Part shown: piece by piece, positions 6,700 to 25,310 of the stretch
Position numbering within the stretch: position 1 is the stretch's first letter
How the letters are laid out: every line of letters begins with the position of its first letter
Assembly: GCF_024502345.1 (NCBI RefSeq)
Contig: NZ_JALDNN010000001.1
Source of the DNA: Escherichia coli
GTDB lineage: Bacteria; Pseudomonadota; Gammaproteobacteria; Enterobacterales; Enterobacteriaceae
Length of the DNA: 64,000 nt
Reading direction: 5' to 3' (one strand)
Notes under the pieces: generated by a model
Seen by the model: the letters and a program-made list of their open reading frames with translations, nothing else
Databases searched by the model: none
What the model was told of the DNA's origin: nothing
Position numbers and translations under genes: made by a program

Positions 6700-7051
6700 A
6701 GTTACCTTCTGTAGATACGAATTGTTGTATCGCAGAAGATTCCATGTCGACAGCGGTACACTCAATTGGTTGGGCCATCATGTACGACAATGGTTCCTGT
6801 AAAGAGTGTAAAGACTAGTCAGGACATAACCACGAGGAGCATGAATGCGGTGGCTCTACTTTATCACTGGCTGACTGCTTTCAGCTACTGATTATTAATC
6901 GTGCAAAGTAAAAAATTTTCCGCACGCAATAGTGTTGCATTTAACATGCTGTTTTCATTGATGCTTAGCAAAAATTGCCAGAGGTTAAGGATTGTCTTAC
7001 TATTAAAGTGACTGAAGTTACAGGTTTTTTAGCGCGGCAGGAGGTTGAGCT

Positions 7052-7294
7052 ATGATTTATTTATGGATGTTTCTCGCCCTGTGTATTGTCTGCGTAAGCG
7101 GCTACATCGGTCAGGTACTGAATGTGGTATCGGCGGTCTCTTCTTTCTTCGGCATGGTGATCCTCGCTGCACTCATTTATTACTTCACCATGTGGTTAAC
7201 AGGCGGTAATGAACTGGTGACGGGGATATTTATGTTTCTTGCCCCGGCTTGTGGCTTGATGATTCGCTTTATGGTGGGGTATGGCAGGCGGTAG
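7052..7294 (+). CDS. yfdY: Small membrane protein YfdY
   Basis: 80 aa hydrophobic ORF in the conserved position between lpxP and ypdI. Confidence 0.7.
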   Translation: MIYLWMFLALCIVCVSGYIGQVLNVVSAVSSFFGMVILAALIYYFTMWLTGGNELVTGIFMFLAPACGLMIRFMVGYGRR

Positions 7295-7370
7295 TGGGTC
7301 AGGATGGCTCATTTGGGCAGGTGTTCACATCAGCATCAGACATGATTGCTCACCTGCCATGTGACAGACG

Positions 7371-7646
7371 CTATCGCACAGGATGAATAAGATAACTCGC
7401 CTTTGTCGGATAAGTGGGCGTGGTTTCTTCTGTGAGGTTTAATGGTGGCGCATCTTCTCTCATCTTAAACAAAAGCGCCTGTGATGGCTGAAATTTTGTA
7501 GAGTGAGTTGTCGTCATCGCTGATGTTTTTTCAGTCTCTTTATAGCTCCTCTCACTTCCACCACCAGAAATGGAAAATGCAAAAACATTGCATGCCATAA
7601 TAGAGACCAATAAAAATAAGCTAAAAAGTATTAAGTTTACTTTCAT
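7371..7646 (-). CDS. ypdI: Lipoprotein YpdI
   Basis: 91 aa ORF with a lipoprotein-type signal peptide (…LLVSIMAC); K-12 synteny. Confidence 0.7.
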   Translation of the reverse strand: MKVNLILFSLFLLVSIMACNVFAFSISGGGSERSYKETEKTSAMTTTHSTKFQPSQALLFKMREDAPPLNLTEETTPTYPTKASYLIHPVR

Positions 7647-7788
7647 AGAAAGTTATCCTGAAAATGGTTCACTGAGAAAGTACGATGTTATGGCTGTATT
7701 TACATATAATTAATCAATATTTACATCGATATAATAAATGACATCTCTTTGTGGTACATAAGAATAGTTCTCTGTGACAGGAAGCATA

Positions 7789-7844
7789 TTCCTACAATTG
7801 TAAGACTAAAATACTTCTTGCGATAATAACTACAACTGTAAGAT
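7789..7844 (+). promoter_or_regulatory. Two putative EvgA boxes (TTCCTACAATTGTAAGAC at 7789-7806 and TAACTACAACTGTAAGAT at 7827-7844) upstream of yfdX
   Basis: Inverted-repeat TACA-N-TGTA motifs resembling the EvgA consensus, 100-150 bp upstream of yfdX. Confidence 0.4.
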
Positions 7845-7941
7845 AACCCTTTCAAAATGACCGTTGCTCTCTGATTTCTCATTTCATGCTCACCCAATAT
7901 GATGGCGGCGTTTTCTAAAACTGTTAAAGAATGAGGAAAGT

Positions 7942-8577
7942 ATGAAACGTTTAATTATGGCCACGATGGTCACAGCAATTCTGGCATCTTCAACTGTATG
8001 GGCTGCTGATAATGCTCCGGTAGCGGCACAACAGCAAACTCAGCAAGTTCAGCAAACCCAGAAAACGGCAGCGGCAGCAGAGCGTATCTCTGAACAAGGT
8101 TTATATGCGATGCGTGACGTGCAGGTAGCGCGTCTGGCTCTGTTTCATGGCGATCCGGAAAAGGCAAAAGAACTGACCAATGAAGCTTCAGCTTTGTTGT
8201 CAGATGACAGTACCGAATGGGCAAAGTTCGCTAAGCCAGGTAAAAAGACCAATGTCAATGATGACCAATATATTGTCATTAATGCATCTGTCGGAATTTC
8301 TGAGAGTTATGTAGCGACACCCGAAAAAGAAGCCGCGATAAAAATTGCCAATGAAAAAATGGCGAAAGGGGATAAAAAGGGCGCAATGGAAGAGCTTCGC
8401 CTGGCCGGTGTTGGTGTAATGGAAAACCAATATCTGATGCCGCTTAAACAGACTCGTAATGCACTTGCTGATGCGCAGGAACTGCTTGATAAAAAGCAAT
8501 ACTACGAGGCAAACCTGGCGCTTAAAGGTGCGGAAGATGGAATCATCGTCGATAGCGAAGCACTGTTTGTGAACTAA
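7942..8577 (+). CDS. yfdX: Periplasmic protein YfdX
   Basis: 211 aa ORF with signal peptide; first gene of the yfdX-frc-oxc-yfdVE cluster. Confidence 0.85.
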
Positions 8578-9088
8578 TGCTGACAGGCAGTATATTGAGG
8601 TAAAGGATTTAACTCCCCCCAGCCGACAATTTTTTATGACCACAATACGACAGGTTGTGGTCATAAAATTATTTGGCACTCACGGTTCTATAAACTCGCA
8701 TTTTATATTCCTCAAAGTAAACCGCAATAATCCCGTGTCATCACAAATCATTTAATATGATATATTTTATGGTACGCTTTAAAAAGTGTAATCATACCCT
8801 TACTTGTAAATCACCGGCGCTTCTTACAGTTGTAAGAATAACATCACAAATGTCGCGACTCTCTCTGATTACCACGAACCAATATTTATCATATTCTTCT
8901 TTTCGTCCTCACTACTTACCATGCAGAAAGGAATTGGAAGTAGCGATGAAATGATTTTCAGTACTTGATACAGGAATGTAAAAATATCGAGTGCCGCTAC
9001 GATGATATTTTGCGGGTTATTTATAGAGGCGTTATGCCTTAAATAAACGCTAAATTAACACATATTTAATTAACTAATAGGTATTGCT

Positions 9089-10339
9089 ATGTCAACTCCA
9101 CTTCAAGGAATTAAAGTTCTCGATTTCACCGGTGTGCAATCTGGCCCATCTTGTACTCAAATGCTGGCCTGGTTTGGCGCTGACGTCATTAAAATAGAAC
9201 GTCCCGGCGTTGGTGACGTAACGCGTCACCAGCTGCGAGATATTCCTGATATCGATGCGCTTTACTTCACCATGCTTAACAGTAACAAACGTTCTATTGA
9301 ATTAAATACCAAAACAGCGGAAGGCAAAGAGGTAATGGAAAAGCTGATCCGCGAAGCTGATATCTTAGTCGAGAACTTTCATCCAGGGGCCATTGATCAC
9401 ATGGGCTTCACCTGGGAGCATATTCAAGAAATCAATCCACGTCTGATTTTTGGTTCGATCAAAGGGTTTGATGAGTGTTCGCCTTATGTGAATGTAAAAG
9501 CCTATGAAAACGTTGCTCAGGCAGCGGGTGGCGCGGCATCCACTACGGGTTTTTGGGACGGTCCGCCGCTGGTAAGCGCTGCAGCGTTGGGTGACAGCAA
9601 CACCGGAATGCATTTACTGATCGGTTTACTTGCTGCTTTGCTGCATCGCGAAAAAACGGGGCGTGGGCAACGAGTCACCATGTCAATGCAGGATGCCGTA
9701 TTGAACCTTTGCCGCGTGAAATTACGCGACCAGCAGCGTCTCGATAAATTGGGTTATCTGGAAGAATACCCGCAGTATCCGAATGGCACATTTGGTGATG
9801 CAGTTCCCCGCGGAGGTAATGCGGGTGGTGGCGGTCAGCCTGGCTGGATCCTGAAATGTAAAGGTTGGGAAACCGATCCTAACGCCTATATTTATTTCAC
9901 TATTCAGGAGCAAAACTGGGAAAACACCTGTAAAGCCATCGGCAAACCAGATTGGATTACCGATCCGGCATACAGTACAGCCCATGCCCGACAGCCACAT
10001 ATTTTCGATATTTTTGCTGAAATCGAAAAATACACTGTCACTATTGATAAACATGAAGCGGTGGCCTATTTGACTCAATTTGATATTCCTTGTGCACCGG
10101 TTTTAAGTATGAAAGAAATTTCACTTGATCCCTCTTTGCGCCAAAGTGGCAGTGTTGTCGAAGTGGAACAACCGTTGCGTGGAAAATATCTGACAGTTGG
10201 TTGTCCAATGAAATTCTCTGACTTTACGCCGGATATTAAAGCTGCGCCGCTATTAGGTGAACATACCGCTGCTGTATTGCAGGAGCTGGGTTATAGCGAC
10301 GATGAAATTGCTGCAATGAAGCAAAACCACGCCATCTGA
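9089..10339 (+). CDS. frc: Formyl-CoA:oxalate CoA-transferase (class III CoA-transferase)
   Basis: 416 aa ORF; CaiB/BaiF family signature; adjacent to oxc. Confidence 0.9.
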
Positions 10340-14375: not shown

Positions 14376-17300
14376 TTAGTCATTTTGCTGACAGAAAACA
14401 GCAATCTCCTGGTCCAGCTCTGCAATGTGTTCTTTTACAGAGTTCAGCAGCTGAAGAATTTCAGGCTTACTGTCATCTGAAACAGGTGTTATTTCTAACT
14501 GATGGCTAATATTAATCAACTTTTGCAAATTCAGGATGTTAGCCGCACCGTGGATGCGATGAATACACTGATGGAAAGTTCTATTATCGCCAGCTTCTAG
14601 TGCATGAAACGCAGCGGGTAAATCTTTATGTGTTTCATGCTGGAAAGTCATGAGAATCTCCTGCATCAGTTGTAGATCGTTCGCCGTATTATTTTTCAGG
14701 GCTTCGATATCAAGGTGGCGATACTGAGGTGCAATATGCGCAACCTGGTGTAACTGACTTAAATGTGTTTTCAGTACATCCAGGGTCAACGGTTTGAACA
14801 AACATAAGTTCATGCCGCAATTTAACCCTTTTTCACGTTCGTTAGCCTGTGCGTTGGCTGTAAGCCCCCAGATGGGTAAGGAAGAATTTTGCTCACGGAG
14901 TTTGCGAGTCAACTCAAAACCATCCATATTCGGCATATTAACGTCAGTAATAAGCAGATCATAATGTTGCATACTGACTTTGTGTAGCGCTTGCACACCA
15001 TCAGTGGCTTCGTCAACATCATATCCTAATAGATTTAGCTGGCGTTTGAGTAATAGCCTGTTGGTCGGATGATCATCCGCGATTAATATGCTCAACTTTT
15101 CAGGTAGTGTGATAGGTTGTTCTGCTTTTGCCTCGACAGCCGCCACTTGTTGGGTAATTTCTACCGGGATTGTGATCGTAAATGTTGTTCCTATGCCTGG
15201 ATGACTTTCTAATGACAAATCACCCTGCATGTTTTTAATTAATTCTTTGCAGATCATTAAGCCTAAACCAGAACCTGTTTGCTGACGACCTGCACTTGTT
15301 TGGCTATAACGTTTAAACAGTTGTTGTTGTTCTTCCTGTGATAATCCACTTCCAGAATCCATAATCGTTATTTTGATTACAGCGTGGTTGTCATCAATGT
15401 GACCCAGGGAGGTCGTAATTTTTACTGCCCCCTCGGTGGTAAATTTGAGAGCATTACTCAGTAAATTTGATAAGACCTGCTTAAACGCCTGAGGGTCGAT
15501 CTTAACCAGGTAATGTTCAGGAAACGTACTGCTGCAACTTAATGCGATCGATTTGCTTGCAGCAATCGCACCGAAAGAGTGACAAGTGTTCTGGACTAAA
15601 GTAGGAATATCGACCCATTGTGGTTGAAGTTGATAGTTACCCGATTCAATTTTGTCGACATCAAGGATTTCACCAATTAAGCCGAGGAGTGATTGTCCGG
15701 TGGCGTAGGCAAGTGAAATCGCCTCCACCCGTTGTTCCTTGCTAAGACCAGAACCCGACAGAAGTTCCAGGAAGCCCATAATGGAGCTTATTGGTGTTCT
15801 TATTTCGTGACTCATTGTTGCCAGAAACTGACTTTTTGCGACAGTTGCATTGATCGCTTTATTTCTCTCTACTTCGAGTGCATGAATTAAATCACGCGTC
15901 TCGGTAATATCTTGCCAACCACAAATATAAACAGCATGTTCGCTGGCTGGCAGATTACATAATGTATGCCAGTGATTAATGCATCTTTTCTCGATGCCAT
16001 TATCAATTTCAAATACCTGTGTGTATATTGTTCGGTTTTCTTTCGTCTCTGCTGTGACTTCATGCGTATTAGAAAAAACATCTTTAAAGGGTGATTCACT
16101 GTTTTCTAATGGCAACATTGCATTTTTGTAGTAATCAGCAGTGAAATAATGTTCAAATGCACTATTGTGACTAATGACATTACCTTGCCAGTTTACAACA
16201 TAAGTTGGATTCGGTAAGGAGTCCGAGAGCGCTTTCCGGAATGATATTTGGTTTTCTAAATCACCCTGAATGACTTTACGACGACGAACTGAGCGTAACA
16301 GGTAGAATCCCCATAAAAGGCTACTGCCAACTAATAAAACGGATAATGTCGTAACAATATAAAATTGCTCGCTATAGAGGTCCCATGTGTCAATGGTCAC
16401 ATTGGGCATTTTAATCCATTTTTCGGTCAGGCGCAGAACTTCGCTTGGGGGGATTGCATTCAGTGCTTTATTAATAATATCCTTAAGTTCCGGTTCTCCG
16501 CGAGGAAAAGCGAACGAAAGCGATGCATTCGGAACGCCGGGAATAAGAAAATGATAAAGTTCATTAGGATAGTAATGGTCGATCATGTAACGCGAATTTA
16601 ACTGTGTCGCGACCAGAGCATCAAGTTCACCTTCCTTGACCTTGTGAAATGCAGCGCTGGCGTTATCGACTTTTATCCACTCTACCTCCGGATACATCTC
16701 TTTTAATTGCGAATGAAGCTCATAATAATATGGAATGGCAACTTTCATTCCTTTTTTTAATGTTTGTTCACTGTCAGGCGCTTTTTGCATGACAAAAACG
16801 TAAGGCGTTGTTATGAAGGCTTCAGCAAATAAAACATTATTTTCTCTATCTTCACTATAAATAGCACCGGGTAATATATCCCATCCGCCGGGATTCAGCT
16901 GTGTTCCAGCATGGATATTGTGTGAAACGGTGATCGGAGAAAAATTTAAACCTGTTTGCAAGGTAATAATATTAAGAATATCCCCCATAACGCCCCGAAC
17001 CGAGCCATTTTCATCCGTCATAGAATAGGGAGGAGAGTAAGGATTTTCCAGCACCTTTAAATCGGGATGCTGCTTAATCCACTGTTTTTCATGTTCAGTG
17101 AGTTCTAATGGTTTGTTCAGAAAGGCCAGGTTTCCTGTATCAAGCCAATTTTGTGATACTTCATAGCGAACTTCATTTGTTAAAGCATCAACAAATCGAT
17201 TGAGTACTTCATTAAGAACGACAGATTCTTTTCTGGTCAAGAAAAAATTATATTGACGCGGTGAGTTATAATATTTCACTACATTTAAGGAGTGAGTGAA

Positions 17301-17849
17301 ATAGCGGGAAATCATACTGCTGGTAATGATGTTACTACCAATAAAGTAATCATTCTGTCCGGCTGAGACGGATGCTAATGCCTGATATAAATTTGTAAAA
17401 GAGATAATTGTTGCTTTTGGAAATGATTGATGAATTACCTCGTCAGGGGGATAATTTGCTACTCGAGCAATATTTACTGGTTTTGATGAGGTAAGCGGTC
17501 GCATTGAATCGTGAAGGGTGGTGACCAGCGCCGGAAAGGTAATTATCAGTGGTTTGGTTGCAGCAATGTCATCATTAAGAGGCGGCGAAGCAACTAAATG
17601 TGATAACACTATATCGACTTCACCTTCTTCCAGCGCGTCCATTGCTTTTTGATGATCGGCGTATTCCCGGAGTGTTAATTTGATATTTAACGCTCTTTTT
17701 AAAAGATTTAAATAGTCAGCATTAATACCACGAACCCGTTGCTGCGAATCGGTATGCAACAACGTAGCCGTTTGGGACTTATGTACTGCAATCACAAGAT
17801 TTTTTTTGCTCGCTAACCAACGTAATTCCTTGTTGCTCAGACGTAGTGG
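14376..17849 (-). pseudogene. evgS: evgS hybrid sensor kinase, 5'-truncated (about 40 N-terminal codons and promoter lost) at the IS903-like element
   Basis: Reading frame translates …PLRLSNKELRWLASKKNLVIAVHKSQ… right up to the IS inverted repeat at 17850; no start codon or native upstream sequence remains. Confidence 0.85.
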
Positions 17850-18906
17850 GGCTTTGTTGAATAAATCAGATTTCGGGTAAGTCTCCCCCGTAGCGGGTTG
17901 TGTTTTCAGGCAATACGCACGCTTTCAGGCATACCTGCTTTCGTCATTTTGTTCAGCGCTCGTACCAGGGCCATAGCCTCTGCAACCTGACCATCGTAGT
18001 CACGCAGTGTCAGTGAACCCCCGAACAGCTGTTTTACCCGGTACATCGCCGTTTCCGCTATCGAGCGACGGTTGTAATCTGTTGTCCATTTCCACCGCGC
18101 ATTACTCCCGGTCATTCGCTGATTAGCCACTGCACGGTTACGGTCTGCATATTCACCGGGCCAGTAACCCGCACCTTTTCGGGGAGGGATAAGCGCGCTG
18201 ATTTTCTTACGCCGCAGTTCATCGTGACATAGCCGGGTATCGTAAGCGCCATCGGCGGCGGCTGACCTGATTTTCCGGTGGGTTTGCCGGATTAACCCGG
18301 GGAAGGCCTCTGAGTCCGTAACGTTGTTCAGCGACAGGTCAGCGCAGATGATTTCATGTGTTTTACTGTCAACGGCGAGATGCAGCTTACGCCAGATACG
18401 GCGGCGTTCCTGGCCATGCTTTTTGACTTTCCACTCGCCTTCACCGAAGACCTTCAGCCCGGTGGAATCAATTACCAGGTGTGCGATTTCACCCCGGGTG
18501 GGCGTTTTGAAACTGACATTAACCGACTTTGCCCGCCTGCTGACACAGCTGTAATCCGGGCAGCGTAGCGGAACGTTCATCAGAGAAAAAATGGAATCAA
18601 TAAAGCCCTGCGCAGCGCGCAGGGTCAGCCTGAATACGCGTTTAATGACCAGCACAGTCGTGATGGCAAGGTCAGAATAGCGCTGAGGTCTGCCTCGTGA
18701 AGAAGGTGTTGCTGACTCATACCAGGCCTGAATAGCTTCATCATCCAGCCAGAAAGTTATGGAGCCACGGTTGATGAGGGCTTTATTGTAGGTGGGCCAG
18801 TTGGTGATTTTGAACTTTTGCTTTGCCACGGAACGGTCTGCGTTGTCGGGAAGATACGTGATCTGATCCTTCAACTCAGCAAAAGTTCGATTTATTCAAC
18901 AAAGCC
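17850..18906 (-). mobile_element. IS903-like insertion sequence (IS5 family), 1057 bp
   Basis: 18 bp terminal inverted repeats GGCTTTGTTGAATAAATC (17850-17867) and its reverse complement (18889-18906) flank a single transposase ORF; the 9 bp flanks differ (acgtagtgg vs cggtcaaaa). Confidence 0.8.
17906..18874 (-). CDS. IS903-group (IS5 family) DDE transposase
   Basis: 322 aa ORF, C-terminal two-thirds recalled as near-identical to IS903 transposase (…NRRSIAETAMYRVKQLFGG…); true start may be slightly internal. Confidence 0.85.
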   Translation of the reverse strand: MKDQITYLPDNADRSVAKQKFKITNWPTYNKALINRGSITFWLDDEAIQAWYESATPSSRGRPQRYSDLAITTVLVIKRVFRLTLRAAQGFIDSIFSLMNVPLRCPDYSCVSRRAKSVNVSFKTPTRGEIAHLVIDSTGLKVFGEGEWKVKKHGQERRRIWRKLHLAVDSKTHEIICADLSLNNVTDSEAFPGLIRQTHRKIRSAAADGAYDTRLCHDELRRKKISALIPPRKGAGYWPGEYADRNRAVANQRMTGSNARWKWTTDYNRRSIAETAMYRVKQLFGGSLTLRDYDGQVAEAMALVRALNKMTKAGMPESVRIA

Positions 18907-19841
18907 CGGTCAAAATGAATCTACCAGGACTGACCCTGTTAGTGCTCGGTGTTGGTGGCTTGCAAATTATGCTTGATAAAGGGCGCGATCTGGATTGGTT
19001 CAACTCGAATACAATAATAATATTAACAGTAGTATCAGTTATTTCTCTGATCTCTTTAGTCATTTGGGAGTCGACCTCAGAGAATCCGATTCTTGATCTC
19101 AGTTTGTTTAAGTCCCGTAATTTCACCATTGGTATTGTGAGTATCACCTGCGCGTATTTATTTTACTCTGGAGCGATCGTCCTTATGCCGCAGTTACTCC
19201 AGGAAACGATGGGGTATAATGCGATATGGGCCGGGCTTGCTTATGCGCCCATCGGCATCATGCCACTATTGATTTCACCTTTGATAGGACGTTATGGCAA
19301 TAAAATAGACATGCGGGTGTTAGTGACATTCAGTTTTTTGATGTATGCGGTTTGCTATTACTGGCGTTCTGTGACATTTATGCCAACGATTGATTTTACA
19401 GGCATCATTTTGCCACAGTTTTTCCAGGGATTCGCCGTTGCCTGTTTCTTTTTACCCTTAACAACGATTTCGTTTTCAGGCTTGCCAGATAATAAATTTG
19501 CCAATGCCTCGAGTATGAGTAATTTTTTTCGTACCTTGTCAGGATCAGTTGGTACGTCGTTGACAATGACGCTGTGGGGACGACGCGAATCGTTACACCA
19601 TAGTCAGTTGACAGCAACCATCGATCAATTTAACCCCGTGTTTAATTCATCGTCACAAATTATGGATAAATACTATGGTTCGCTTTCAGGAGTTCTTAAT
19701 GAAATTAATAATGAAATAACCCAGCAGTCACTTTCTATTTCTGCAAATGAGATTTTCCGTATGGCGGCTATTGCTTTTATCTTACTTACGGTTTTGGTTT
19801 GGTTTGCGAAACCGCCGTTTACAGCGAAAGGCGTTGGGTGA
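18907..19841 (+). pseudogene. emrY: emrY MFS multidrug efflux pump, 3' fragment (about 310 C-terminal codons) abutting the IS903-like element
   Basis: Translation matches the C-terminal transmembrane half of an EmrB/EmrY-type transporter; sequence begins directly at the IS inverted repeat. Confidence 0.8.
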
Positions 19842-19948: not shown

Positions 19949-21277
19949 TTAACGGCCTTTTGCCAGATATTGATTCATCTCTTCTTCCGGCACCATTCCA
20001 CCTCCCGTCGCCCACACCAGATGAGTGGCATTACGCAATTGTTCTGCGCTGAAACCGTGCATCTGTTGGTAACTTACTGATGCACACACGCGCTGAGGTC
20101 CGGCCATACCCGCCAGTGCTGAAGGTTCAAGACGAATACCTTCTTCCTGCGCCAGCCAGCCAAGCATGTCATACATGGTTTGATCGCTAAGGGTATAGAA
20201 GCCATCCAGCAGACGCTCCATTGCCCGCCCGACAAAGCCTGATGCGCGACCAACTGCAAGGCCATCCGCTGCGGTAAGGTTGTCGATACCAATATCCTGA
20301 ACAGAAATCTGATCGTGTAATCCTGTATGGACGCCTAACAACATACAAGGGGAGTGCGTTGGTTCGGCAAAAAAGCAGTGAACATGATCGCCAAACGCCA
20401 GTTTAAGCCCGAATGCGACGCCACCAGGACCACCGCCAACACCACACGGCAGATAGACAAACAGAGGGTTATCAGCATCGACGATACGGCCTTGCTGGGC
20501 AAATTGCGCTTTAAGACGCTGGCCAGCGACGGAATACCCAAGGAACAACGTGCGGGAATTTTCGTCATCAATAAAGAAACAGTTCGGGTCAGACTGCGCT
20601 GCTTTACGTCCTTCCTCGACGGCAACACCATAATCTTGCTCATATTCCACGACCGTAACGCCATGGCTGCGCAGTTTCGCTTTTTTCCATGCCCGGGCAT
20701 CAGCAGACATATGAACTGTCACCTTAAAGCCAATGCGGGCGCTCATAATGCCGATTGATAACCCCAGATTTCCGGTTGAGCCCACAGCAATGCTGTATTG
20801 GCTAAAGAACTGTTTAAACTCCGGAGAAAGCAGTTTGCTGTAGTCATCATCAAGCGTCAGCAACCCCGCTTCCAGAGCCAGTTTTTCTGCGTGTGCCAGG
20901 ACTTCATAAATCCCGCCGCGTGCTTTTATGGAGCCGGAAATGGGCAAATGGCTATCTTTTTTCAGTAACAGTTGCCCGCTGATCGGTTGCTGATATTCTT
21001 TTTCCAGCCGTTTTTGCATAGCTGGAATGGCAACCAGTTCTGATTCAATAATCCCCCCAGTGGCAGCAGTTTCAGGAAATGCTTTTGCCAGATAGGGTGC
21101 AAAACGGGATAAGCGCGCATGGGCGTCCTGAACATCCTGTTCGGTCAGGCCAACATAAGGTAAACCTTCAGCCAATGAGGTCGTGCCAGGATTAAACCAG
21201 GTGGTTTCTTTAAGAGCAACCAGATCCTTTACCAACGGATACTGGGCGATGAGCGAGTTCATTTTAGCGTTTTCCAT
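19949..21277 (-). CDS. dsdA: D-serine dehydratase (PLP-dependent)
   Basis: 442 aa ORF recognised as DsdA; convergent with emrY as in K-12. Confidence 0.9.
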
Positions 21278-21743: not shown

Positions 21744-22739
21744 ATGGCTTCATTAAAGGATGTCGCACGCCTGGCGGGAGTGTCGATGATGACAGTCTCC
21801 CGGGTGATGCATAATGCAGAATCTGTGCGTCCTGCAACGCGTGACCGCGTATTGCAGGCAATCCAGACCCTGAATTATGTTCCTGATCTTTCCGCCCGTA
21901 AGATGCGCGCTCAAGGACGTAAGCCGTCGACTCTCGCCGTGCTGGCGCAGGACACGGCTACCACTCCTTTCTCTGTTGATATTCTGCTTGCCATTGAGCA
22001 AACCGCCAGCGAGTTCGGCTGGAATAGTTTTTTAATCAATATTTTTTCTGAAGATGACGCTGCCCGCGCGGCACGTCAGCTGCTTGCCCACCGTCCGGAT
22101 GGCATTATCTATACTACAATGGGGCTGCGACATATCACGCTGCCTGAGTCCCTGTATGGTGAAAATATTGTATTGGCGAACTGTGTGGCGGATGACCCAG
22201 CGTTACCCAGTTATATCCCTGATGATTACACTGCACAATATGAATCAACACAGCATTTGCTCGCGGCGGGCTATCGTCAACCGTTATGCTTCTGGCTACC
22301 GGAAAGTGCGTTGGCAACAGGGTATCGTCGGCAGGGATTTGAGCAGGCCTGGCGTGATGCTGGACGAGATCTGGCTGAGGTGAAACAATTTCACATGGCA
22401 ACAGGTGATGATCACTACACCGATCTCGCAAGTTTACTCAATGCCCACTTCAAATCGGGCAAACCAGATTTTGATGTTCTGATATGTGGTAACGATCGCG
22501 CAGCCTTTGTCGCTTATCAGGTTCTCCTGGCGAAGGGGGTACGTATCCCGCAGGATGTCGCCGTAATGGGCTTTGATAATCTGGTTGGCGTCGGGCATCT
22601 GTTTTTACCGCCGCTGACCACAATTCAGCTTCCACATGACATTATCGGGCGGGAAGCTGCATTGCATATTATTGAAGGTCGTGAAGGGGGAAGAGTGACG
22701 CGGATCCCTTGCCCGCTGTTGATCCGTTGTTCCACCTGA
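21744..22739 (+). CDS. cscR: Sucrose operon repressor CscR (LacI family)
   Basis: LacI-type HTH (MASLKDVARLAGVSMMTVSRV) plus periplasmic-binding-like domain; start placed at the internal ATG at 21744 (331 aa) within the longer ORF. Confidence 0.85.
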   Translation: MASLKDVARLAGVSMMTVSRVMHNAESVRPATRDRVLQAIQTLNYVPDLSARKMRAQGRKPSTLAVLAQDTATTPFSVDILLAIEQTASEFGWNSFLINIFSEDDAARAARQLLAHRPDGIIYTTMGLRHITLPESLYGENIVLANCVADDPALPSYIPDDYTAQYESTQHLLAAGYRQPLCFWLPESALATGYRRQGFEQAWRDAGRDLAEVKQFHMATGDDHYTDLASLLNAHFKSGKPDFDVLICGNDRAAFVAYQVLLAKGVRIPQDVAVMGFDNLVGVGHLFLPPLTTIQLPHDIIGREAALHIIEGREGGRVTRIPCPLLIRCST

Positions 22740-22746
22740 TATTATG

Positions 22747-24180
22747 TTAACCCAGTAGCCAGAGTGCTCCATGTTGCAGCACAGCCACTCCGTGGGAGGC
22801 ATAAAGCGACAGTTCCCGTTCTTCTGGCTGCGGATAGATTCGACTACTCATCACCGCTTCCCCGTCGTTAATAAATACTTCCACGGATGATGTATCGATA
22901 AATATCCTTAGGGCGAGCGTGTCACGCTGCGGGAGGGGAATACTACGGTAGCCGTCTAAATTCTCGTGTGGGTAATACCGCCACAAAACAAGTCGCTCAG
23001 ATTGGTTATCAATATACAGCCGCATTCCAGTGCCGAGCTGTAATCCGTAATGTTCGGCATCACTGTTCTTCAGCGCCCACTGCAACTGAATCTCAACTGC
23101 TTGCGCGTTTTCCTGCAAAACATATTTATTGCTGATTGTGCGGGGAGAGACAGATTGATGCTGCTGGCGTAACGACTCAGCTTCGTGAACCGGGCGTTGT
23201 AGAAGTTTGCCATTGCTCTCTGATAGCTCGCGCGCCAGCGTCATGCAGCCTGCCCATCCTTCACGTTTTGAGGGCATTGGCGATTCCCACATATCCATCC
23301 AGCCGATAACAATACGCCGACCATCCTTCGCTAAAAAGCTTTGTGGTGCATAAAAGTCATGCCCGTTATCAAGTTCAGTAAAATGCCCGGATTGTGCAAA
23401 AAGTCGTCCTGGCGACCACATTCCGGGTATTACGCCACTTTGAAAGCGATTTCGGTAACTGTATCCCTCGGCATTCATTCCCTGCGGGGAAAACATCAGA
23501 TAATGCTGATCGCCAAGGCTGAAAAAGTCCGGACATTCCCACATATAGCTTTCACCCGCATCAGCGTGGGCCAGTACGCGATCGAAAGTCCATTCACGTA
23601 ATGAACTGCCGCGATAAAGCAGGATCTGCCCCGTGTTGTCTGGGTCTTTCGCCCCGACTACCATCCACCATGAGTCGGCTTCACGCCACACTTTAGGATC
23701 GCGGAAGTGCATGATTCCTTCTGGTGGAGTGAGGATCACACCCTGTTTCTCGAAATGAATACCATCCCGACTGGTAGCCAGACATTGTACTTCGCGAATT
23801 GCATCGTCATTACCTGCACCATCGAGCCAGACGTGTCCGGTGTAGATAAGTGAGAGGACACCATTGTCATCGACAGCACTACCTGAAAAACACCCGTCTT
23901 TGTCATTCTCGTCTCCTGGCGCTAGCGCAATAGGCTCATGCTGCCAGTGGATCATATCGTCGCTGGTGGCATGTCCCCAGTGCATTGGCCCCCAGTGTTC
24001 GCTCATCGGGTGATGTTGATAAAACGCGTGATAACGATCGTTAAACCAGATCAGGCCGTTTGGATCGTTCATCCACCCGGCAGGAGGCGCGAGGTGAAAA
24101 TGGGGATAGAAAGTGTTACCCCGGTGCTCATGAAGTTTTGCTAGTGCGTTTTGCGCCGCATGCAATCGAGATTGCGTCAT
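22747..24180 (-). CDS. cscA: Sucrose-6-phosphate hydrolase / invertase CscA (GH32)
   Basis: GH32 motifs (WMNDPNG, RDP, EC); start placed at MTQSRLH… (477 aa). Confidence 0.85.
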   Translation of the reverse strand: MTQSRLHAAQNALAKLHEHRGNTFYPHFHLAPPAGWMNDPNGLIWFNDRYHAFYQHHPMSEHWGPMHWGHATSDDMIHWQHEPIALAPGDENDKDGCFSGSAVDDNGVLSLIYTGHVWLDGAGNDDAIREVQCLATSRDGIHFEKQGVILTPPEGIMHFRDPKVWREADSWWMVVGAKDPDNTGQILLYRGSSLREWTFDRVLAHADAGESYMWECPDFFSLGDQHYLMFSPQGMNAEGYSYRNRFQSGVIPGMWSPGRLFAQSGHFTELDNGHDFYAPQSFLAKDGRRIVIGWMDMWESPMPSKREGWAGCMTLARELSESNGKLLQRPVHEAESLRQQHQSVSPRTISNKYVLQENAQAVEIQLQWALKNSDAEHYGLQLGTGMRLYIDNQSERLVLWRYYPHENLDGYRSIPLPQRDTLALRIFIDTSSVEVFINDGEAVMSSRIYPQPEERELSLYASHGVAVLQHGALWLLG

Positions 24181-24213
24181 TTTAATCATCCTGGTTAAGC
24201 AAATTTGGTGAAT

Positions 24214-24226
24214 TGTTAACGTTAAC
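24214..24226. promoter_or_regulatory. Putative CscR operator 1 (TGTTAACGTTAAC) in the cscA-cscK divergent region
   Basis: 13 bp palindromic motif, identical copy 64 bp away; resembles LacI-family operator cores. Confidence 0.45.
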
Positions 24227-24277
24227 TTTTATAAAAATATAGTCCCTTACTTTCATAAATGCGATGAATATCACAAA

Positions 24278-24290
24278 TGTTAACGTTAAC
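24278..24290. promoter_or_regulatory. Putative CscR operator 2 (TGTTAACGTTAAC)
   Basis: Second identical copy of the 13 bp motif in the same intergenic region. Confidence 0.45.
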
Positions 24291-24395
24291 TATGCCGTTT
24301 TGTGATCGAATATGCATGTTTTAGTAAATCCATGACGATTTTGCGAGAAAGAGGTTTATCACTATGCGTAACTCAGATGAATTTAAGGGAAAAAA

Positions 24396-25310
24396 ATGTC
24401 AGCCAAAGTATGGGTTTTAGGGGATGCGGTCGTAGATCTCTTGCCAGAATCAGACGGGCGCCTACTGCCTTGTCCTGGCGGCGCGCCAGCTAACGTTGCG
24501 GTGGGAATCGCCAGATTAGGCGGAATAAGTGGATTTATAGGTCGGGTCGGTGATGATCCTTTTGGGGCGTTAATGCAAAGAACGCTGCTAACTGAGGGAG
24601 TCGATATCACGTATCTGAAGCAAGATGAATGGCACCGGACATCCACGGTGCTTGTCGATCTGAACGATCAAGGGGAACGTTCATTTACGTTTATGGTCCG
24701 CCCCAGTGCCGATCTTTTTTTAGAGACGACAGACTTGCCCTGCTGGCGACATGGCGAATGGTTACATCTCTGTTCAATTGCGTTGTCTGCCGAGCCTTCG
24801 CGTACCAGCGCATTTACTGCGATGACGGCGATCCGGCATGCCGGAGGTTTTGTCAGCTTCGATCCTAATATTCGTGAAGATCTATGGCAAGACGAGCATT
24901 TGCTCCGCTTGTGTTTGCGGCAGGCGCTACAACTGGCGGATGTCGTCAAGCTCTCGGAAGAAGAATGGCGACTTATCAGTGGAAAAACACAGAACGATCG
25001 GGATATATGCGCCCTGGCAAAAGAGTATGAGATCGCCATGCTGTTGGTGACTAAAGGTGCAGAAGGTGTGGTGGTCTGTTATCGAGGACAAGTTCACCAT
25101 TTTGCTGGAATGTCTGTGAATTGTGTCGATAGCACGGGGGCGGGAGATGCGTTCGTTGCCGGGTTACTCACAGGTCTGTCCTCTACGGGATTATCTACAG
25201 ATGAGAGAGAAATGCGACGAATTATCGATCTCGCTCAACGTTGCGGAGCGCTTGCAGTAACGGCGAAAGGGGCAATGACAGCGCTGCCATGTCGACAAGA
25301 ACTGGAATAG
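24396..25310 (+). CDS. cscK: Fructokinase CscK (PfkB family)
   Basis: 304 aa ORF; ribokinase/PfkB motifs (GGAPANVA…, DSTGAGDAFVAG). Confidence 0.85.
   Translation: MSAKVWVLGDAVVDLLPESDGRLLPCPGGAPANVAVGIARLGGISGFIGRVGDDPFGALMQRTLLTEGVDITYLKQDEWHRTSTVLVDLNDQGERSFTFMVRPSADLFLETTDLPCWRHGEWLHLCSIALSAEPSRTSAFTAMTAIRHAGGFVSFDPNIREDLWQDEHLLRLCLRQALQLADVVKLSEEEWRLISGKTQNDRDICALAKEYEIAMLLVTKGAEGVVVCYRGQVHHFAGMSVNCVDSTGAGDAFVAGLLTGLSSTGLSTDEREMRRIIDLAQRCGALAVTAKGAMTALPCRQELE

Follow-up and report, generated by a model that had tools for sequence, protein, structure and literature searches.

The cscA-cscK intergenic region of the Escherichia coli csc (non-PTS sucrose) locus carries two copies of a short palindrome, termed O1 and O2, that are very probably high-affinity operators for dimers of the repressor CscR and belong to a conserved CRP-dependent control module. 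These two sites are the published CscR operator pair, which has been known since 2002 and was revisited in 2013, 2014 and 2024. Since the 2002 publication already covered the sites, the repressor and an operator mutation that derepresses, nothing described here is new as a discovery. The comparison has been widened from five species to about 60 loci, and several of its results are mildly new: the breadth of conservation, an invariant distance between O2 and the nearer CRP site, a rigid CRP-operator-CRP unit, the use of the same module at unidirectional promoters, and the lack of an operator ahead of cscR in E. coli. Growth of E. coli W and many wild strains on sucrose depends on the csc regulon, which is also a common target of engineering for sugar-cane feedstocks. 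A base-level map of operator, CRP site and promoter helps the design of derepressed or tunable cassettes.

The sites were examined within a 64-kb stretch of E. coli DNA (the window). An initial annotation made from the sequence alone had placed two sites between cscA and the divergent cscKB operon, next to a gene for a LacI-family regulator, and this gene context is as it was described. The features of the region are as follows.

19949-21277, minus strand: dsdA
between dsdA and cscR in the gene list: dsdX remnant
21744-22739, plus strand: cscR, LacI-family repressor, 331 aa, convergent with cscA
22747-24180, minus strand: cscA, sucrose hydrolase (invertase), 477 aa
24214-24227: putative operator O1, cscA-proximal; core 24215-24226, centre 24220.5
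24234-24241, minus strand: candidate cscA -10 (TATTTT from 24239 to 24234; TATATT from 24241 to 24236 in this allele)
24260-24275: CRP-like site 1, TGCGATGAATATCACA, 9/10 match to TGTGA-N6-TCACA; centre 24267.5
24278-24291: putative operator O2, cscA-distal and nearer cscK; core 24279-24290, centre 24284.5
24301-24316: CRP-like site 2, TGTGATCGAATATGCA, 7/10 match to the same consensus; centre 24308.5
24353-24365, plus strand: conserved block GGTTTATCACTAT upstream of cscK, candidate cscKB -10
24396-25310, plus strand: cscK, fructokinase, 304 aa
25382-26629, plus strand: cscB, sucrose/H+ symporter of the LacY family, 415 aa, intact here

The cscA-cscK intergenic region is 215 bp long and has a G+C content of 31%, compared with 48% for the window. 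Of 5,426 complete E. coli genomes, 2,663 have a match, 90-100% identical and always chromosomal, to a 321-bp stretch that spans the sites.

The exact repeat is 14 bp in length (TGTTAACGTTAACT), and its two copies are separated by 64 bp whether the distance is taken from start to start or from centre to centre. The initial annotation had reported identical 13-bp palindromic sites 64 bp apart. The 13-mer in question, TGTTAACGTTAAC, does occur exactly on the plus strand at 24214-24226 and at 24278-24290, but it is not itself a palindrome. Perfect symmetry is confined to a 12-bp core, GTTAACGTTAAC, which also contains the palindrome that had been quoted at a length of 10 bp. This core consists of GTTAAC written twice, and thus has an even length with CG at its centre. 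The flanks of the core contribute only slight further symmetry, at 6/7 to 8/10 per half-site. Between the O1 core and the cscA start codon lie 34 nt, which places the centre of O1 40 bp upstream of that ATG. The O2 core is separated from the cscK start codon by 105 nt, and its centre lies 111 bp upstream of the cscK ATG and 104 bp upstream of the cscA ATG.

The window contains 17 distinct perfect 12-bp palindromes, among which GTTAACGTTAAC is the sole example that occurs twice. When the 215-bp intergenic region was shuffled 20,000 times, a direct repeat of at least 14 bp arose in 1 shuffle and a twice-occurring 12-bp palindrome in 5. A position weight matrix (PWM) for the operator, built exclusively from orthologous loci outside E. 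coli, assigns 30.0 bits to O1 and 29.4 bits to O2, and the next-best matches in the window score 13.4 and 3.7 bits.

Both repeats have a published history. Jahreis et al. (2002), as relayed in PMC11251922 (Front Microbiol, 2024) and PMC3938415, put forward the two inverted repeats of 12 bp as putative operators of CscR and observed that a spontaneous mutation in one operator derepresses the regulon. The repeats are described as conserved in five species and as flanking the -35 and -10 elements of cscA, with the downstream repeat over the start site and a putative Crp operator adjoining the -35 element (PMC11251922). Operator sites in the intergenic region are presumed to mediate repression of both cscA and cscKB by CscR; a spontaneous mutation in the "cscKB operator" permits growth on low sucrose, deletion or truncation of cscR derepresses the csc regulon, and the bidirectional csc promoter is stated to have two cAMP-CRP sites (PMC3938415). 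The locus, the repeats, the proposed repressor and the two CRP sites of these accounts are those found here, and nothing essential differs. Repression of both transcription units by CscR, their response to cAMP-CRP, and derepression by an operator mutation are accordingly taken from the literature. In the open literature, where the sites are called "putative", no direct binding of CscR to them by EMSA or footprinting was found. The csc operators are reportedly treated in J Bacteriol 184:5307 (Jahreis et al., 2002), and the csc regulon in AEM 79:478 (Sabri et al., 2013).

The sites also carry the signature of their proposed regulator. Operators of the LacI family are typically even-length palindromes with a central CG, most of which reside 30-140 bp upstream of start codons (PMC4052901, the supplement of which includes a RegPrecise CscR regulog, 5497, for Enterobacteriales). 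O1 and O2 have this symmetry and this position, and a cognate LacI-family gene, cscR, is present in the same locus. The cscR product matches LacI-family models, with PF00356, PF00532 and PF13377 on record for homologues. In its helix-turn-helix, residues M16, T17, S19 and R20 are invariant across the 16 orthologues aligned, a constancy that fits an unchanged operator. A structure is available for a close homologue of CscR (PDB 6ndi, named "Transcriptional regulator", 334 aa; E = 1.4e-114 over residues 1-330).

A comparative search extends these observations beyond E. coli. Starting from an alignment of CscR with 16 orthologues (56-79% identity), 80 loci encoding CscR orthologues of 53-97% identity were fetched from contigs representing one genome per species, and gene order around cscR was established by tblastn with the four E. 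coli Csc proteins. At least five arrangements were found: the E. coli order, in which cscR (plus) and cscA (minus) are followed by cscK and cscB (both plus); cscR (plus) ahead of a cscA-transporter operon that occupies the other strand; cscR transcribed divergently from a transporter-cscA operon; an order seen in Providencia and Proteus; and one seen in Gilliamella. A csc catabolic gene lies beside cscR in 77 loci, the E. coli reference (L001) included, and the operator pair is present in 62 of them. The genera covered include Citrobacter, Pluralibacter, Pectobacterium, Yersinia, Serratia, Klebsiella, Erwinia and Gilliamella. With up to two mismatches allowed, the core occurs 182 times in 411 kb of csc clusters and 31 times in 720 kb outside them, and every exact match listed is intergenic and adjoins a csc gene or cscR. 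From the orthologous loci, the consensus of the 20-bp operator is AAATGTTAACGTTAACATTT. The site is thus kept where its flanks diverge, and it co-occurs with the gene for its regulator. With these results, the published work and the site signature, the proposal of the initial annotation that the sites are paired operators of the adjacent CscR is supported, and its interpretation coincides with the published model.

The distance between paired sites is strongly preferred. The 69 pairs listed, in which some loci appear with alternative pairings, comprise 35 with a spacing of 64 bp, 13 with 63 bp and 3 with 62 bp; other values are 57 bp in 10 pairs from Gilliamella and 68-69 bp in 3 from Proteus. 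Loci that lack the pair include three that are cut off before the promoter and a group from Providencia and Moellerella (L019, L022-L024, L026, L029 and L033, with the order cscR-cscA | cscK) in which one perfect operator resides between cscA and cscK and no second operator is detectable. Because these loci manage with one site, the pair is not obligatory.

To compare the surroundings of the sites, modules were oriented toward the gene nearest the proximal operator, and the 35 distinct modules with 64-bp spacing were stacked without gaps. The distal core (O2) contains 2.0 bits per position and the proximal core (O1) 1.89, values that are partly circular because the modules were picked for having two sites. 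The enrichment count given above and the PWM made without E. coli are free of this circularity. A CRP-like site that follows the distal core (consensus TGTGATTAACATCA) holds 1.51 bits per position, and a second CRP-like site upstream of it, in which the TCACA half-site is fixed, holds 1.04, compared with 0.39-0.49 for spacers and leader. Around the pair the order of elements is always CRP site, distal operator, CRP site, approximately 30 variable bp, proximal operator, leader and start codon. From the distal operator to CRP site 1 the distance is invariant, with 3 bp from the core to TGTGA and 17 bp from centre to centre, and from CRP site 1 to the proximal operator it is 45-47 bp, or 39 bp in Gilliamella.

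In at least seven genera-level loci (for example, L007, L010, L012, L015, L016, L039 and L041), the neighbour on the far side of the distal site is an unrelated gene transcribed in the same direction. In these genomes, judged from gene arrangement, the complete module of two operators and two CRP sites has one promoter to act on. CRP site 2 is likewise retained in modules that have no divergent gene. The E. coli module points at cscA, where its geometry, including the 34-nt gap between the O1 core and the ATG, is the same as elsewhere. Among seven E. coli alleles, 30 of the 215 intergenic positions vary, and none of these is among the 28 operator positions.

The CRP-like sites were called by consensus match and statements in the literature only. 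In the window, the centre of CRP site 1 is 17 bp from that of O2 and 47 bp from that of O1, and the centre of CRP site 2 lies 24 bp from that of O2 on its other side; O2 is thus flanked by CRP-like sites at distances of 17 and 24 bp, both fixed in the 35 modules. With the CRP site centred 38.5-41.5 bp upstream of the start, we infer from geometry that cscA transcription begins at approximately 24226-24229, at the edge of O1. If CRP site 1 is a class II site at about -41, O1 would be centred near +6, O2 near -58 and CRP site 2 near -82. The candidate cscA -10 segment between the operators is weakly conserved across genera. A T at position 24240, present in the window and in strain C 236-04A and different in the six other E. 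coli alleles, creates TATATT (24241 to 24236) on the cscA strand and TATAGT on the plus strand, and might strengthen the cscA -10 region. A consensus promoter scan of 24100-24450 returned one plus-strand site, TTAACG-16-TATAGT, which equals the number expected by chance. This promoter was not adopted, since it needs the window-specific T at 24240 and would leave a CRP site downstream of the start.

A candidate for the cscKB promoter is found farther toward cscK. The block GGTTTATCACTAT is kept in E. coli, Citrobacter amalonaticus and Pluralibacter gergoviae, with diverging flanks, and its first part, GGTTTATCA (24353-24361), is the only block downstream of CRP site 2 that is common to E. coli, C. 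amalonaticus and Pluralibacter. If it is the cscKB -10 element, the predicted cscKB start is at approximately 24369-24372, CRP site 2 would be near -61 and O2 near -85, and neither operator would overlap the cscKB core promoter. With the promoter so placed, repression of cscKB by CscR needs either anti-activation or cooperation between the operators, unless the start has been misplaced. The comparison raises a specific question, namely how repression from the distal site reaches the divergent cscKB operon.

These elements suggest a mechanism in which the separate roles of O1 and O2, like the exact promoter positions, are deduced from their arrangement. Read along the cscA strand, the control region would comprise CRP site 2, O2, CRP site 1 beginning 3 bp past the O2 core, approximately 30 bp that include the -10 element, O1, the 34-nt leader and the ATG. 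When inducer is lacking, CscR on O1 would block RNA polymerase at the cscA start. CscR on O2, bound against or between the CRP sites, presumably hinders CRP-dependent activation of cscA, and may also hinder the divergent cscKB promoter, which would use CRP site 2. CscR would leave the DNA at high sucrose, released by the sugar itself or by one of its products, whereupon cAMP-CRP could drive both transcription units.

One alternative, which the initial annotation had raised together with looping, is that the operators divide the labour, with O1 serving only the cscA promoter and O2 only that of cscKB, each blocking polymerase independently. O2 is indeed the site nearer cscK. However, the same pair, 62-64 bp apart and accompanied by two CRP sites, occurs where only one promoter exists, and such unidirectional modules lead us to reject a strict rule of one operator per promoter as the ancestral design. 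Moreover, O2 probably does not lie over the cscKB core promoter, because 105 nt separate it from the cscK ATG, with both CRP site 2 and the -10-like block lying in between. We consider this division possible but rather doubtful.

Another alternative is DNA looping, in which contact between CscR molecules on O1 and O2 would loop out the 64 bp between them, CRP site 1 and the cscA -10 element included, and so achieve tight cooperative repression. Spacings of 62-64 bp, found in 51 of the 69 listed pairs, correspond to approximately 5.9-6.1 helical turns (about 6.1 for 64 bp), and a bend induced by CRP inside the loop could assist its closure. GalR, a dimer that lacks the LacI tail, is a textbook example of a repressor that loops. 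However, the 57-bp spacing of Gilliamella and the 68-69-bp spacing of Proteus are offset by half a turn, and Providencia has one site only. The invariant distance from O2 to CRP site 1, together with the variable distance from CRP site 1 to O1, suggests instead that each operator is set relative to promoter elements. Because the same module is found even where the promoter is unidirectional, the 64-bp spacing probably reflects promoter geometry, which on this comparison is probably a sufficient explanation for its conservation. The protein bears on the same point. The helix through which LacI forms tetramers lies at approximately residues 340-357. CscR aligns with LacI residues 5-313 of 360 through its own residues 3-318 and has 13 further residues; by this alignment it lacks the C-terminal tetramerization helix that lac-type looping employs. 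A LacI-style tetramer loop is rejected for want of this tail, and we regard looping in any form as unlikely.

Known systems help to place the csc pair. In the gal system, as in the arrangement proposed for csc, a LacI-family dimer without the LacI tail has an upstream operator just beyond a CRP site at about -41 and a second operator downstream of the promoter. The textbook gal positions are -60.5 for OE, -41.5 for CRP and +53.5 for the intragenic OI, which leaves 113 bp between sites that loop only with HU. By contrast, the second csc site would be near +6, 64 bp from an upstream operator near -58. The lac system shares with the proposed csc layout a main operator over the start region, an upstream auxiliary operator beyond the CRP site, and control of a LacY-type permease. 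In lac, O1 is at +11, O3 at -82 and the CRP site at -61.5, and the LacI tetramer bridges O1 and O3 in a loop of 92 bp. The tetramerization segment is missing from CscR, whose sites are identical perfect palindromes, whereas lac pairs one strong site with one weak site.

At deoP2-type promoters, CytR binds between tandem CRP sites, an arrangement that csc resembles with CRP centres 41 bp apart. The CytR sites are weak and need contacts with CRP, and the CRP sites are approximately 52 bp apart. The CscR operator, in contrast, is a perfect and invariant palindrome that should bind its repressor alone, and to our knowledge no contact between CscR and CRP has been described. ScrR at scrY, on pUR400 and in Klebsiella, has two sites that bracket a CRP-dependent promoter, as in csc (PMC11251922). 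ScrR differs from CscR in belonging to another orthologous group of repressors and to a PTS pathway, and its inducer is fructose or fructose-1-phosphate. By analogy, the csc pair would work most like the ScrR operators of scrY combined with gal OE beside CRP, rather than like a tetramer loop of the lac type.

A tentative proposal, which we would not expect to prove correct, is that the distal operator might work through interference with CRP and not through exclusion of polymerase, such that CscR at O2 displaces CRP or locks it in a non-activating state, in the manner of GalR at OE or of CytR. If true, such interference would explain how one site approximately 85 bp upstream of the cscKB start represses that operon. 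It would also account for the CRP-operator-CRP unit being more rigid than any other part of the module throughout Enterobacterales.

Two further readings compete with the assignment of O1 and O2 to CscR itself. The sites could belong to another regulator, such as Cra/FruR or a LacI-family paralogue, with the adjacency of cscR a coincidence, and half-sites of LacI-family proteins do resemble one another. However, the motif follows cscR orthologues from one gene order to another, at least five in all, and it is not found within 7 kb on either side of the four cscR-like genes that lack csc neighbours (none in L028, L038 or L076, and in L020 only a site with one mismatch, 5.7 kb away). As derepression upon cscR deletion in the literature also speaks against it, this reading is very improbable. 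Chance, or a neutral local duplication without function, deserves almost no credence: although AT-rich DNA raises the background of palindromes, and some 12-bp palindrome arose in 2,163 of the 20,000 shuffles, the repeat itself was reproduced in only 1 to 5 of them, and the sites are perfectly conserved across genera while their flanks diverge.

There is no operator upstream of cscR in the window, where the best PWM score is -13.6 bits. In Gilliamella (L046-L060), in addition to the 57-bp pair upstream of cscA, two operator-like sites 14 bp apart (TTTAACGTTAACATGTTAATGTTAAC, at approximately 6820-6855) occupy the gap that separates cscR from a divergent cscB-like gene, an arrangement suggestive of autoregulation in these organisms.

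Two other sequences in the window resemble operators in part. The perfect 12-bp palindrome TAACGATCGTTA, which contains GATC, is located at 24032-24043 in the 5' part of cscA. Its half-sites are operator-like but 4 bp further apart, and it is probably a chance palindrome of the coding region. The 13.4-bit PWM match, GGTCAACGTTAAC at 40924-40943, differs from the 12-bp core at one position. It lies inside an ORF of 406 aa (40823-42043, minus strand) without a Pfam match, and was taken to be a chance occurrence.

An Rfam scan of 23900-24600 yielded nothing meaningful, its one match having E = 0.19 and 13.8 bits against a gathering score of 60. An upstream ORF of 18 codons (ATGCGTAAC...) at 24365-24421 begins 31 nt upstream of the cscK ATG and runs into cscK in another frame. 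Lacking conservation in C. amalonaticus and Pluralibacter, it is probably meaningless.

Related E. coli loci show natural rearrangements. In strain C 236-04A (L001), the intergenic region is 100% identical to that of the window, and in the stretch 7283-9730 of this locus cscB is interrupted by an IS5-like ISKpn26 element. In strain MDP9-27 (L087, 1580-1600), a natural deletion that takes out both operators, both CRP sites and cscK fuses the cscA start region to a 5'-truncated cscB. Elsewhere in the window, emrY is intact only from approximately 18906, the point from which the DNA is collinear with that of C 236-04A, and its expected first 600 or so nucleotides translate to stops. Immediately upstream of this remnant are an ORF for a DDE transposase (17906-18874, minus strand) and then an EvgS-like hybrid sensor kinase (14376-17795, minus strand). 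The arrangement of 14376-19841 suggests an IS-associated deletion of evgA, emrK and the 5' part of emrY.
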